Positions 4,602-28,721 of a DNA stretch of 64,000 nt are shown in pieces. Made by a program: the position numbers and the translations under genes. Source of the stretch: Myxococcales bacterium. Its GTDB lineage: Bacteria; Myxococcota_A; Polyangia; Palsa-1104; JAEUJZ01. The notes under the pieces were generated by a model. That model saw only the letters and a program-made list of their open reading frames with translations, did not search any database and was not told where the DNA came from. Every line of letters starts with the position of its first letter. Position 1 is the stretch's first letter. Location of the stretch: assembly GCA_016794465.1 (NCBI GenBank), contig JAEUKA010000024.1, forward strand, positions 7,511-71,510, given 5' to 3'.

Positions 4602-7600
4602 ATGGTACTTGGGTGGGCGGTAGCGCTGGACGGATCAGTTGGCACAGGTAGCGAGGCTCCGCGGTTGCCGAGCACTTGGCTCCTTGTCGTGCTGGTGCTC
4701 TTCTTCCTGCTGCTCATTGTAGCCGGCATCGGCTTGATCTATTTGATCTTTCGGCGGCGTGGCCAGACCGAGCGACCGACACAGGGCGGCCAGAATCAAG
4801 CGACCCCCAAGCGACTTCTGTCAATCTGGCGACAGTTCCTTGAGCCACTCCCAGTCAGTGTTCAGGTCGCCATTCAGGACTACGATCACTTCGTCGTCTT
4901 CGGTGATCCGGGAGTTGGAAAAAGTGCGCTGATCAGTCGACGTGTGGACTGGCAAGGGCAAGCCAGTCAGTTTCTGCCAAGCCATACGGCCGATCCGCTG
5001 CTTCAGATCTACCTGGGCAGTCGCACGATTGTCCAAGAGGTTTCCTCAACGCTTTTGCAGGCGGCCAATCGGGAAGCTCACGAGGCCTTTCGAAAGCTGT
5101 GGAAGAGATCACTGCCATCTGCGCTCTTGCCAACGGTTGTCATCGTTCTCAAGATCTCGACCCTGGCGAACAGTAGCCCAGATGTGCTGCGCCAGCAGGC
5201 CAAGCTGATTCGAGGAAAGATCAATCTGCTGGCAGAACTGTTCGGAGCGCCCATCCTGACTCGTTTGTGCCTGACCAATATGGAGCGCATCTCGGGTTAT
5301 TCCGAGTTCTCTCGGTTCCTCCACAAGAACCGGATCCCGCTGCTGCTCGATGCCAGCGGGGATGCCCAAAGTAGCCTTGGAAGCAGTCTTCAGTCCTATG
5401 AAAAGCATCTGCCACGGGCCCTGACCACCATGCCCGTTGGACCCTTTGAGGCTAGCATAGAGGTCCTAAACTCTGCTGAAGAGCTGATGACACCTGTGCG
5501 CAGTTTCATCGCCGCACTGGTCGAAGGCTCGGTGGCTTCGCTGCGCCCTGACGTCCAGAGTGTCTACTTCTTTTCACTCCCCGCCGATGAAGACGTTGGC
5601 AATCCCTTCGAGCCCGTGGTCAATAAAGGGGCGCGAGCACCCTCTCTGTTTCTACGTTGGCTGCGCTGGTTGGCTGGACTTGGCATTCGACCGATCCATG
5701 CACTCCTTAGTCTCTTGTTACTCGCAGTCGGAGTCGGCCCGATTTGGTATGTCAGTCACCGCCATGGCCAGAAGGTTCAGCGCGCTAGCACGATGGCCGG
5801 AGAGTTTGAACGAGCGGTGCGCCGTGCCCAAGAGTCACTCTCCAATCCGAGTGAATCAGACGTAGTGCGTACCAGTGAACGGGCAGCAGAGCAAGCGCTC
5901 TCGCTCGTTTTGGACGAAGAAACTCGCCTGCGCCCTTTGAAACTGCTTCTGCTTCGTGAGAAAAATGAAGCGCGGCAGCACTTTGTGGACGGACTGCGAC
6001 AAGGGTATCTGCGCCCTGTGCTGGAAGCAGGTGTCCGTCAACGAGCACGCGACAAGATCCTCTACAGCCTTGCTACGCTTTACGCCGCGCAAGACAACGC
6101 GCTGGGAACGCTGGTGAAGACGCAGCGCACCGACTTTGCAACGACTCTGGGTCTGCCAGCAGATGTACTGAGTGCATACGTTGAAAATAGCCCGCACGCC
6201 TGGACCGACAAGGCACTGCTGCTGCTTCCTCCTTTGCCATCCGAGTCAGCGCACTGGCCGACTAGCGATCTCCGTCCTTGGCAAGAGTTTGTGCAGACAA
6301 TTGCTCGTGCCATTCCACAGCCTTCGATTGCAGGAGATCAGCTGGAGCGGCTACGCAAGCAGGCAGAACACCTCCGCGAGACGATAGAGCGAGTGCGCAA
6401 GGCGCACGTGATGCGCCGCGTTTATCAGATGCTGGCAGAAGAGACGCCCATCGACATGAACAAGCTGTTTGGTGGAGAGGTCGGTGTGCTCACCCCCGAT
6501 CCGTGGCTCACCGACAACATGGCCAACCTGGAGCTCCTGCTCAAGCTGATCCGTGACAGCTCGGCCCAGTCAGGTCGCCACGACCACCTGAGTCTGTATC
6601 AGCTACTCCGTTGGGTGAATGCACTCGGCGCCAGCAAGGAAGCGCTTGCGCATGGGCCTGGCATTTCTCCGCTGTTCGAAAATGACCTGGTACACTTCGC
6701 ATTCCCGAGCAGCAAGGTGTACGAGATCAGCGAGCGGGGCTGGCTCGATCTGCTCTTGCGCAGCCGCAAGCGCTGGCTCCTGTCGCATCAGATCAGCAAC
6801 GTTCGGCTCCACGACAAACACTCCCATCGACGTCGCTGCTGCGATTGTGTGTCGGAAAGTCGCCGGAAGCGACGGCACTGTGTGCGATGCGAACGGACAG
6901 AAGATGACTCTGAACGGAAGTCATGTTTGCCCCCACGGACGGAGAGTCGCAGAGTGGATTTGCCTCCCTTTGGTCCTGAAGAGCTGCGGCCCAGACTCGC
7001 CAACCTGATGACCAAGGGGGAGACCCCCAACGAGCACCTGGGAGACGAGTACAACCGCGCGGTCTTCGATAATGAAGTTCTACCACTGGTACGTGAGCTA
7101 CGTAAGGCCGTGGCAGAGAGCAAGGCGTTGGGTCCGGAAGAAAAGATCCGGCTGACTCGGCTCGTACGATCGGAAATCGAAGGATATGCGCGGAAGTACT
7201 GCAGTGGGCTCATGCGTTACTACCTGAGCTACCACTTTCACGCGCACGACCAAGGGAGTCCGGTCACTTCTCTGCATTCGGCACTGCTGGATCTGACCAA
7301 GCCCGGCTCTCGCTTTGTATCGCACCTGTCGAGCGTTGCAGAAAACGCAGCACTTGCTGGGCTCGATGATCCATATCTGAAGCCACTGGCAGAGTGTTTG
7401 GCCGAGTTCCGCCCACTCATCAAAGTGGTGAATGCGGATCTGCTCAAGCGGAAGAGTGCGAAGCCAAGTGGAGGGGTGCTGGAGCCAAAAGAAAACAAGA
7501 GCTCAGGCTCAGACAGTCAAGATCGCACCCCAGGGAAGGAGGCCGCAGCAGGTCAAGGGACGGGCAGTTCTCCGGACAAGGAGACCACAGGACGGAAGGA

Positions 7601-27812: not shown

Positions 27813-28721
27813 ATGGAGTCGACGTCAGAGAACCAAATAACCCCGACCCGGGCGGAGCTCGAGAAGCGAATCGAGCAGCAGGCGTACAAGTTTGATCTGT
27901 CTGCACTCCATGATCTGCTTCGTCATCTGGGGTATGAAGAATCGGATATTGAGTACCGCAGCCACGATACACTGGTGCACCAGTGTTCTCTTGTGGGCAG
28001 CGTAAAGTTTCACAAACTTCCACGGCGGAGGGTCGTCGTACTGCTGAACCTCGGCTGGCTCGGGCCGCAGAGTGCCTTACCGAATTACTTTCGCATGATC
28101 TTGGCCGAGCAGCAGGACGACTCCCTTTCGGAGTTTTTGGGTCTATTCTGTCATATGATGTTCCGTAGCGGCATAGTTGCGTCCTTCCCGGAGAGAGACC
28201 CCGCAATATTTCGGAATTGGCCGCGTGCGCTTCAGCAGTTGCGCTGTCTGCTTGGCCTTCGCTCCACCTACACGACCCACTGGGTATTTTCGCAGGTCTT
28301 CCCAGAGCTTGAGGTAGCGGTTTCGCGAACCATTATGGAGCGTGAGATGCGGTCAAGTGGAATGGAGCTTGGGATTTGGGAGCTTGGTGACGGCTCTGTA
28401 TGTGGCGGCATCTCAAAAGTGCCGGTGTCTGCCGTGGCGATTCAGCTATTTGCTGACCAGCTCACCTGCGGAACCGGAGAGCCATGGTCCAGCGAAGCCC
28501 TGCGTCGGATCGAGGAGCATGTCCTGCCGACGCTGGCGGCCCACGGCTCCTTCCTAGAGGTGAAGCTGGTGCTGCGTGACCAGAGCAGCTTCATGATTCT
28601 GCAGCCCCATCAATACCTAGGCTATGAACCGATCAAAGGAGGTCCACGACAGGCCAGTGCAACTGCCAAGTCCGCCCGCACCATCGTGCTATTTCAGGGG
28701 GAAGTGCCCAGTAGCACGTGA
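27813..28721 (+). CDS. tssG: T6SS baseplate protein TssG (ImpH)
   Basis: YKFDLSALHDLLRHL and VVVLLNLGWLGPQSALPNYFRMILAEQ...SEFLGLFCHMMFRSGIVASF match TssG blocks. Confidence 0.7.
   Translation: MESTSENQITPTRAELEKRIEQQAYKFDLSALHDLLRHLGYEESDIEYRSHDTLVHQCSLVGSVKFHKLPRRRVVVLLNLGWLGPQSALPNYFRMILAEQQDDSLSEFLGLFCHMMFRSGIVASFPERDPAIFRNWPRALQQLRCLLGLRSTYTTHWVFSQVFPELEVAVSRTIMEREMRSSGMELGIWELGDGSVCGGISKVPVSAVAIQLFADQLTCGTGEPWSSEALRRIEEHVLPTLAAHGSFLEVKLVLRDQSSFMILQPHQYLGYEPIKGGPRQASATAKSARTIVLFQGEVPSST

Follow-up and report, generated by a model that had tools for sequence, protein, structure and literature searches.

According to reviews and surveys, Francisella is the only genus with type VI secretion systems (T6SSs) of subtype ii (T6SS-ii) (PMC4793230, PMC13584744, PMC12955703). 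A survey reports one Dongshaea genome as a further carrier (PMC13098142), and for Francisella-like systems elsewhere the literature searched (to 2026) gave Francisellaceae relatives only. Equivalents of TssA, TssE, TssF and TssG are listed as unknown or unproven in Francisella (PMC5924787, PMC9600919), that of TssA being recorded as missing in T6SS-ii (PMC5924787, PMC13584744). Outside Francisella, BLAST finds nothing significantly similar to IglH and IglJ, and within the genus no TssE is known (PMC9600919). The Francisella sheath is disassembled by ClpB (PMC5481754), and its tip protein IglG carries a PAAR-like DUF4280 domain and an N-terminal helix that binds IglF, whose gene lies between vgrG and iglG (PMC5014421). 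Here we describe a module of 16 genes in a 64-kb stretch of DNA from a Myxococcales bacterium (contig JAEUKA010000024.1; the whole stretch is called the window below). The module probably encodes a complete contractile T6SS of a lineage specifically related to the Francisella T6SS-ii, residing in uncultured Myxococcales/Polyangia.

Gene assignments are based on the listing of open reading frames (ORFs) and on Pfam and NCBIfam scans, with scores given as bits against the family cutoff. Searches of PDB by sequence, Foldseek, AlphaFold and tblastn provided further links, and absences refer to the 64-kb window. The 16 genes are tightly packed on the plus strand (3113-28721) and all 16 ORFs are intact. 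Intergenic distances range from -11 to +86 bp, with the exception of 238 bp before tssB, and the junctions include three ATGA overlaps and one TGATG. The T6SS genes listed in an initial annotation of this DNA are all present on the plus strand, at or near the coordinates given there. That annotation called the layout non-canonical, which is correct by the standards of the canonical subtype, T6SS-i; the layout nevertheless follows the Francisella plan. The series tssB-tssC-X-tssK corresponds to iglA-B-C-D, and tssF-dotU-..-iglI-tssG to iglH-dotU-iglI-iglJ. The 4.5 kb between tssF and tssG, filled by dotU, a 151-amino-acid (aa) ORF, a 603-aa ORF, a DUF4280 gene and iglI, had been read as a displacement of tssG. 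The separation is confirmed by the coordinates, but it is no oddity, as it reproduces the Francisella order.

The TssC and TssK proteins of the window are identical to MBL9041177.1 and MBL9041179.1 from a Myxococcales bacterium metagenome-assembled genome (MAG; locus tags JNM83_), where they lie on a 230-kb contig. A scan of species-representative genomes yielded seven loci, spread over six MAGs that carry the labels Polyangia, Myxococcales or 'Pseudomonadota', and metagenome look-ups added further loci. Related MAGs include DAOLIT01, JAXLYE01, CALFYE01, CAZKOY01 and CAZVMD01. The module order recurs in about 12 independent MAG or metagenome loci, with protein identities of 38-97%, and the layout is therefore not due to chance. 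As delimited by tblastn, the conserved module consists of STK2, tssM, iglE, tssB, tssC, the iglC-like gene, tssK, tssE, the giant gene, tssF, dotU, u150, u600, the DUF4280 gene, iglI and tssG. STK2, a kinase gene, is the first conserved member, with variable genes further upstream, and synteny stops after tssG, whose product is 59-80% identical in relatives. Beyond these two ends the flanks differ between genomes and carry NHL-repeat proteins, a lipase, IS21 or a sulfotransferase. The relatives belong to Polyangia/Myxococcales MAGs, and thus the system lacks the restriction to Francisellaceae that is a trait of T6SS-ii.

The more divergent loci keep the plan as well. In Francisella the genes run pdpB-iglE-vgrG-iglF-iglG. 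The most distant locus (L012, IglI 38% identical) has tssM-iglE just before u570-DUF4280-iglI, resembling this series and closer still to the Francisella order than the window. Another lineage, with a tube protein of just 30% identity, retains tssB-tssC-X-tssK-tssE-giant. As a separate observation, the MAG contig DAOLIT010000028.1 (64.8 kb) contains a 20.6-kb T6SS segment twice (L001, 6094-26705, and L002, 38424-59035). The copies lie 32 kb apart in the same orientation and give identical tblastn results; either the whole system is truly duplicated in tandem or the assembly is at fault.

Sheath, tube and spike

TssB and TssC score above the cutoffs of TIGR03358 and TIGR03355, respectively, as is required of a T6SS sheath pair. 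Among solved structures, the best PDB match of TssB is Francisella IglA (3j9o_A, 98 bits), whereas canonical TssB/VipA proteins, including that of Myxococcus xanthus, reach at most 61 bits. The best match of TssC is likewise IglB (3j9o_B, 364 bits, versus at most 352 for other solved structures). The sheath proteins of M. xanthus are thus more distant from those of the window than are IglA and IglB.

The gene between tssC and tssK, a position that it holds in all relatives, encodes a 200-aa protein with no match in Pfam, NCBIfam or the PDB sequence search. An AlphaFold model built with 24 homologues is of moderate confidence (predicted local distance difference test, pLDDT, 72.6; predicted template modelling score 0.75). 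Its sole significant Foldseek match in PDB is IglC (2qwu_A, E 1.2e-4, probability 1.0, template modelling scores 0.60/0.58), which it matches over its full length. By sequence this link was missed both by phmmer and by a 119-sequence profile. From the predicted fold, we regard the protein as a putative inner tube subunit, equivalent to Hcp. The initial annotation had noted a protein without Hcp signature at the hcp position and had proposed checking by profile for an ordinary Hcp. The Pfam and NCBIfam scans returned no Hcp family match, so the observation stands; what does not is the notion of a missing Hcp, given that the sole significant fold match is IglC.

A profile of the 200-aa family finds 397 clusters (50% identity) in 1.84 billion proteins, and none of the family members has an IglC or Hcp match in Pfam. 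The wider family (P0026-P0174; L030) consists mostly of proteins of about 190 aa with no Pfam domain, some of them fused to extensions as long as 1,460 aa. Verification in T6SS loci extends only to the nearer members (profile E about 1e-30 or better), and one at close range, P0175, sits in the same T6SS layout. We considered whether the 397 clusters stand for hundreds of such T6SSs and rejected this, since a member from Pseudonocardia lies in a non-T6SS context.

A giant protein is encoded between tssE and tssF in all relatives (1,497-2,632 aa). The presence of the ORF between these two genes had been listed as unusual, but it is a conserved occupant of the position and contains a PdpA-like segment. 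Its best PDB match is Francisella PdpA (6u9e, E 0.0042, query residues 355-462 versus 301-405 of the chain), and the motifs FxDPxxALWxxHxP and FYD are common to both proteins. The ORF has no Pfam or NCBIfam match, and its N-terminal part matches none of the VgrG, gp27 and gp5 families. Numbered from the ORF start at 13785, the ortholog alignment divides the protein into a conserved N-terminal domain (17-181), a variable insert (182-311), a conserved core that contains the PdpA-like segment (312-830), a Gly/Lys-rich linker (831-1002), a conserved beta-rich domain (1003-1183), which may be needle-like, and a variable low-complexity C-terminal extension (1184-2632). The extension abounds in Pro, Ser, Ala and His, with no enzymatic domain that can be recognised. 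It comprises 900-1,450 residues in the window, L001 and L003 and is nearly absent in L004, L006 and L007. We infer that the giant protein is a single-chain spike, hub and needle together, with variable fused cargo, analogous to evolved VgrGs. Because of the IglC-fold 200-aa protein and the conserved PdpA-like giant protein, tube and spike functions are probably both encoded in the locus.

Two sequence features of the giant proteins deserve mention. A motif, A-x-A-G-[LM]-L-P-P-[ES]-[IV]-x-P, recurs three to five times. In the window it falls within the C-terminal extension (1837-2500), whereas L004, L006 and L007 have it in the N-terminal insert (307-440), as though the module could move. Two His-rich tracts, HHRKHKHPHGHKHHHKRNH and HHRHSKAHHQHSKAHHQKAH, occur in the window protein as well.

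Baseplate, envelope complex and accessory proteins

The baseplate wedge expected of a T6SS is present in the form of TssE, TssF, TssG and TssK. TssK exceeds the cutoff of the canonical NCBIfam model, whereas TssE, TssF and TssG remain under theirs. TssE scores 35.8 bits with GPW_gp25 (cutoff 27.2) and 43.3 bits with TIGR03357 (cutoff 53.2). TssF reaches 62 bits with PF05947 (cutoff 25) and falls below the cutoff of TIGR03359. TssG is below cutoff with both PF06996 (21.9 bits) and TIGR03347 (22.7 bits), but is positionally conserved.

The envelope complex would comprise TssM, a short DotU/TssL protein and a lipoprotein. In TssM the IcmF_C match is weak and TIGR03348 scores 33.9 bits, far below its cutoff. 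The lipoprotein has a signal peptide with a cysteine (LLVCAQTGC, read in the sequence) and matches PF22361 IglE_N at 77.4 bits (cutoff 26); its score with NF041245 T6SS_IglE is 46.8 bits, below the cutoff of 75. No match to TssJ (SciN-type) families was found in Pfam or NCBIfam. The description of the system as type-i-like through TssJLM therefore does not hold, the lipoprotein being of the IglE type. Upstream of the envelope genes, STK2 encodes a kinase domain, a single transmembrane helix at about residues 336-360 and a short PEGA-like outer segment, as read from the translation. Orthologs 48-66% identical lie directly upstream of tssM or tssB in eight related loci (L001, L003, L004, L006, L007 and L017-19).

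The gene previously called tssA does not bear out this identity. Its product matches the IglI family model NF041244 at 247.9 bits (cutoff 100) over 289 of 290 model positions, versus 17.8 bits with ImpA_N (cutoff 26.9). ImpA_N is matched weakly in nine of ten IglI-family members (the window protein and P0185-P0193; best E 3.4e-4). The top PDB match of the family profile is the N-terminal region of 6rju_A, annotated as 'Putative type VI secretion protein', which we take to be a TssA; at E 0.19 it is not significant alone. We found no paper in the literature searched that names IglI and ImpA_N together. On this sequence evidence, IglI may be a candidate for the TssA-like assembly factor recorded as missing in T6SS-ii. 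The NCBIfam model evidently covers such proteins already, and annotators may therefore have met them.

The DUF4280 protein is 128 aa long and its domain begins at residue 5, so there is no N-terminal extension and the IglG-specific helix, a T6SS-ii trait, is absent. It scores 21 bits with the IglG model NF041248 (cutoff 200), and its cysteines are at positions 13, 15, 55, 73 and 103. Directly upstream of its gene is that of the 603-aa protein, which is 36-66% identical in relatives and has no significant family match (only weak acyl-CoA-ligase-like hits of 20 bits). Given its IglF position, it may serve the tip protein as cargo or as adaptor, the likeness to IglF being one of position. The 151-aa protein has no family match in Pfam, NCBIfam or PHROGs, and a gene for 137-151 aa occupies its position in L008-L015. 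A PHROGs scan of segments of the giant protein, the IglC-fold protein, the 151-aa and 603-aa proteins, IglI and TssG also gave no match.

The scans of ORFs over the 64 kb detected no Clp/AAA_2, Hcp, Phage_GPD/VgrG or FHA family, which bears out the initial annotation as to ClpV, canonical VgrG and FHA. The only ORFs of at least 800 aa in the window are those of TssM, the giant protein, a STAND-like ATPase and a kinase. In 16 related loci there is no ORF of at least 500 aa with two Walker A motifs, and no ClpV-like gene lies within 10 kb in the related loci examined. Both in the window and, to within 10 kb, in each related locus examined, the statement that the locus has no ClpV gene is thus upheld, and the proposal of an uncharacterised T6SS variant is supported. 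We consider that the system probably relies on the housekeeping ClpB, or on no dedicated sheath-recycling ATPase.

These absences could also be explained by an ordinary T6SS-i core with genes for ClpV, Hcp and VgrG at other places in the genome, in which case the giant protein and the 200-aa protein would be accessory proteins or effectors. TssB, TssC and TssK pass the canonical NCBIfam equivalog cutoffs, TssM has a Walker A motif, the absences are established for 64 kb of a 230-kb contig only, and orphan hcp/vgrG islands are common (PMC13098142). However, four T6SS-i features are wanting in the window itself, namely ClpV/TssH, Hcp (PF05638) with Phage_GPD/VgrG, a SciN-type TssJ and an above-threshold ImpA_N TssA. 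The slot of the tube gene is taken in every relative by a protein of predicted IglC fold, and that of the spike gene by the conserved giant protein with its PdpA-like segment. The IglE-type lipoprotein and the IglI-family gene are not T6SS-i parts, and among solved structures TssB is much nearer to IglA than to canonical TssB. We therefore judge an ordinary T6SS-i quite unlikely.

Table 1. Genes of the module, with positions in the window and the principal evidence for each assignment
Feature	Position	Strand	Evidence
Ser/Thr kinase STK2, membrane-spanning	3113-4540	+	Pkinase 182 bits
TssM/IcmF-like (PdpB position), inner-membrane subunit	4602-8651	+	IcmF-related_N 31.6 bits
IglE-type outer-membrane lipoprotein (TssJ analogue)	8651-9127	+	PF22361 IglE_N 77.4 bits
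TssB/IglA small sheath subunit	9366-9911	+	PF05591 126 bits, TIGR03358 137 bits
TssC/IglB large sheath subunit	9983-11470	+	VipB PF05943 362 bits, PF18945, TIGR03355 485 bits
200-aa IglC-fold protein, putative inner tube	11557-12159	+	predicted fold
TssK baseplate protein, canonical type	12165-13409	+	TIGR03353 320 bits, PF05936 170 bits
TssE, gp25-like sheath initiator	13421-13807	+	GPW_gp25 35.8 bits
Giant protein, putative spike and cargo	13797-21683 (ORF opens at 13785, 2,632 aa)	+	PdpA-like segment
TssF (IglH position)	21680-23338	+	PF05947 62 bits
DotU/TssL, short form, C-terminal transmembrane helix	23335-24030	+	PF09850 61 bits, TIGR03349 52.8 bits
Conserved 151-aa protein	24068-24526	+	position kept in relatives; no family match
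Conserved protein of about 603 aa (IglF position)	24528-26339	+	conservation, position
DUF4280 PAAR-like spike tip (IglG-type domain)	26336-26722	+	PF14107 65 bits
IglI-family protein, 349 aa	26739-27788	+	NF041244 247.9 bits
TssG (IglJ position), last gene of the module	27813-28721	+	PF06996 21.9 bits (below cutoff) and position

Flanking DNA

As initially annotated, kinases and a PP2C phosphatase (39551-40384) flank the T6SS locus. The G+C content is 0.57-0.59 over the kinase and T6SS region (1-33043), compared with a mean of 0.62 in 33044-64000. The lower value of the module region is compatible with horizontal acquisition, like that of the Francisella island. It might also be taken, together with the serine recombinase gene that adjoins the locus (31865-33043), as a sign of a decaying or non-functional remnant, or of an extracellular or phage-tail-like contractile injection system; the T6SS locus itself has a G+C content of 0.569, versus 0.624 in the downstream DNA. 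Against decay, 16 of 16 ORFs are intact, with operon-like overlaps, and the module is conserved across many lineages. TssB/TssC, TssM, DotU and the lipoprotein define a membrane-anchored T6SS, and PHROGs phage families gave no match to the module proteins scanned. Either possibility strikes us as highly improbable.

After tssG there are about 1.7 kb (28722-30433) without a convincing gene, a 459-aa ORF with a weakly GrpE-like C-terminus (30434-31813), and the serine recombinase on the minus strand. The related locus L024 has, after tssG, a kinase fragment and homologues of the tetratricopeptide repeat (TPR) gene (34150-34956) and the FG-GAP gene (33066-34124) of the window, both on the opposite relative strand. 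From this arrangement, the recombinase segment looks like an insertion or rearrangement beside the T6SS module. Further downstream, a Ser/Thr kinase gene on the minus strand is apparently split, its kinase domain being divided into an N-terminal half (37713-38225) and a C-terminal half (34826-35920). The halves are separated by about 1.8 kb with a G+C content of 0.54, containing a 454-aa ORF (36254-37618, plus strand) with no family match. A 454-aa ORF also follows tssG in L026; tblastn detected no similarity between the two, and we rejected their identity, the equal length being coincidental.

A STAND-like ATPase of 897 aa (weak AAA_16 and NACHT matches below threshold) and, immediately after it, a Ser/Thr kinase of 857 aa containing TPR repeats (44843-50128) form a signalling pair with no relation to the T6SS module. 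Near the end of the window, tRNA-Ala(GGC) (55205-55278) is directly followed by a tyrosine integrase on the minus strand (55384-56496). Beyond it are helix-turn-helix regulators, an AAA_25 ATPase (57942-59063), a CHC2 primase-like gene (59056-60204) and a Gp49-like gene (62727-63536). The segment 55205-63536 looks like a mobile element integrated at the tRNA gene.

Placement among T6SS subtypes

Several of our results weigh against a specific relationship with T6SS-ii. TssK scores 320 bits with TIGR03353 (cutoff 100), and its PDB matches are canonical TssK proteins, none of them IglD. TssE is recognisable, unlike in Francisella, and TssF scores 70 bits with the canonical TIGR03359 versus 16.5 bits with the IglH/TssF model NF041246. 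The locus therefore does not have the divergent IglD/IglH/IglJ baseplate with no recognisable TssE that is a trait of T6SS-ii. The Walker A motif of TssM (GDPGVGKS) is intact here and in all orthologs, a canonical trait; PdpB of Francisella is not known to have such a motif. The PdpA link of the giant protein is confined to one stretch of about 105 residues, and when the family profile is compared with PDB, PdpA is the sole match and a weaker one (E 0.07). A profile of the beta-rich domain (residues 1000-1190) finds no VgrG or gp5 match in PDB, and the AlphaFold model of residues 300-1190, built from a six-sequence alignment, has a pLDDT of 29.6 and is unusable as a structure. The member of the 200-aa family from Pseudonocardia, an actinobacterium, sits among unrelated metabolic and regulatory genes. 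Finally, the absence of ClpV covers the window and the related loci, and a clpV gene may exist elsewhere in the genome.

The system is thus a mosaic of T6SS-i-like and T6SS-ii-like components. It is intermediate between the two subtypes, because its Francisella-type odd parts occur together with a canonical TssK, recognisable TssE, TssF and TssG, and a TssM with Walker A. Such a mosaic might also define a T6SS subtype of its own, the fifth, which would be sister to T6SS-ii and have ancestral parts in common with it but fall outside it. Its innovations would be the single-chain spike with a giant extension, the obligate partner kinase, and the retention of TssE and a canonical TssK. This reading is favoured by the lack of a separate vgrG and of pdpC, pdpD, pdpE and anmK, by a DUF4280 protein without the N-terminal extension of IglG, and by NCBIfam IglE, IglG and IglH models that all score below cutoff. 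On the other hand, the IglI score of 248 bits and the preference of TssB for IglA speak for a true shared ancestry with the Francisella system, and a fifth subtype would differ from a deep branch of T6SS-ii only in where the subtype line is placed. We consider it unlikely, and a lineage specifically related to T6SS-ii remains the probable assignment.

A complete T6SS related to that of Francisella might work as follows. TssM, DotU and the IglE-type lipoprotein would form the envelope complex, and TssE, TssF, TssG and TssK the baseplate. The TssB/TssC sheath would polymerise with the IglC-fold protein of 200 aa as the tube inside it. Of the giant protein, the N-terminal 1,180 or so residues may serve as the spike, with PdpA-like hub and beta-rich needle in one chain, and the DUF4280 protein would cap it. 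The variable C-terminal portion of the giant protein, about 1,450 residues, and possibly also the 603-aa protein at the IglF position, would be cargo. The IglI-family protein may take a TssA-like assembly role, and the adjacent transmembrane Ser/Thr kinase may gate assembly. With no dedicated ClpV, the housekeeping ClpB would recycle contracted sheaths, following the Francisella precedent, or there would be no active recycling.

The finding rests on sequence comparison and on the predicted model of one protein. The cluster points to an environmental origin of a major virulence island, Francisella being the genus of the tularemia pathogen. Francisella-specific parts lie here beside recognisable canonical baseplate proteins, and this arrangement offers a direct, synteny-based key for Francisella assignments. 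The cluster would also enlarge the group of T6SSs functioning with no dedicated ClpV, and it presents an unusually large putative single-chain spike and cargo protein. More tentatively, and with the balance tipped slightly against it, the myxobacterial lineage could be a surviving intermediate that stands between T6SS-i and the T6SS-ii of Francisella. In that case the island of Francisella would come from an environmental family of wider extent, and the lineage could assign missing Francisella parts: IglI would be a TssA-like (ImpA_N) factor in assembly, synteny would equate IglH with TssF and IglJ with TssG, and a position would be given where TssE may be sought. The Francisella spike would then have had a single-chain PdpA-VgrG ancestor, and kinase-gated firing without ClpV, with a spike-effector fusion of 1,500-2,600 residues, would be an established mode outside pathogens.

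Compared with canonical T6SS-i, as in the H1-T6SS of Pseudomonas aeruginosa with PpkA/PppA/Fha or the system of M. xanthus, the locus shares TssB, TssC and TssK above equivalog cutoffs, recognisable TssE, TssF, TssG, TssL and TssM, and an adjoining membrane kinase reminiscent of PpkA. It differs in having no ClpV/TssH, Hcp, Phage_GPD-type VgrG, SciN TssJ or above-threshold TssA, and no FHA protein that could be a target of the kinase. Evolved VgrG spikes of T6SS-i resemble the giant protein in that a conserved spike-like N-terminal part carries a strain-variable C-terminal extension; in the giant protein, however, the N-terminal part has no VgrG/gp27/gp5 match and the extension is mostly low-complexity, with no enzymatic domain. 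The T6SS-iii of Bacteroidota shares a DUF4280-type tip (Fte1, cited in PMC5014421), and TssA is not listed among its core components (PMC13584744). It lacks TssJ/L/M and has TssN/TssO/TssP (PMC4793230, PMC10781749), whereas the present locus has TssM, DotU and an IglE-type lipoprotein.

From the T6SS-ii of Francisella the locus differs in its host, which belongs to Myxococcota and not to Francisellaceae, in its canonical TssK and in TssE, TssF and TssG that are recognisable by T6SS-i models. Its TssM has a Walker A motif, its DUF4280 protein is without the IglG N-terminal helix, and none of pdpC, pdpD, pdpE or anmK is present. In place of PdpA and a separate short vgrG product, hub and beta-rich domain are found in one chain of 1,500-2,600 aa, and a conserved transmembrane Ser/Thr kinase heads the module. 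Both systems lack clpV in the locus and have IglA and IglB as nearest solved sheath proteins (PMC5924787, PMC5481754). They also share the IglE-type lipoprotein, the IglI-family protein, the DUF4280 tip, a tube protein of IglC fold, predicted here, without an Hcp signature, and a PdpA-like segment in the protein at the spike slot.

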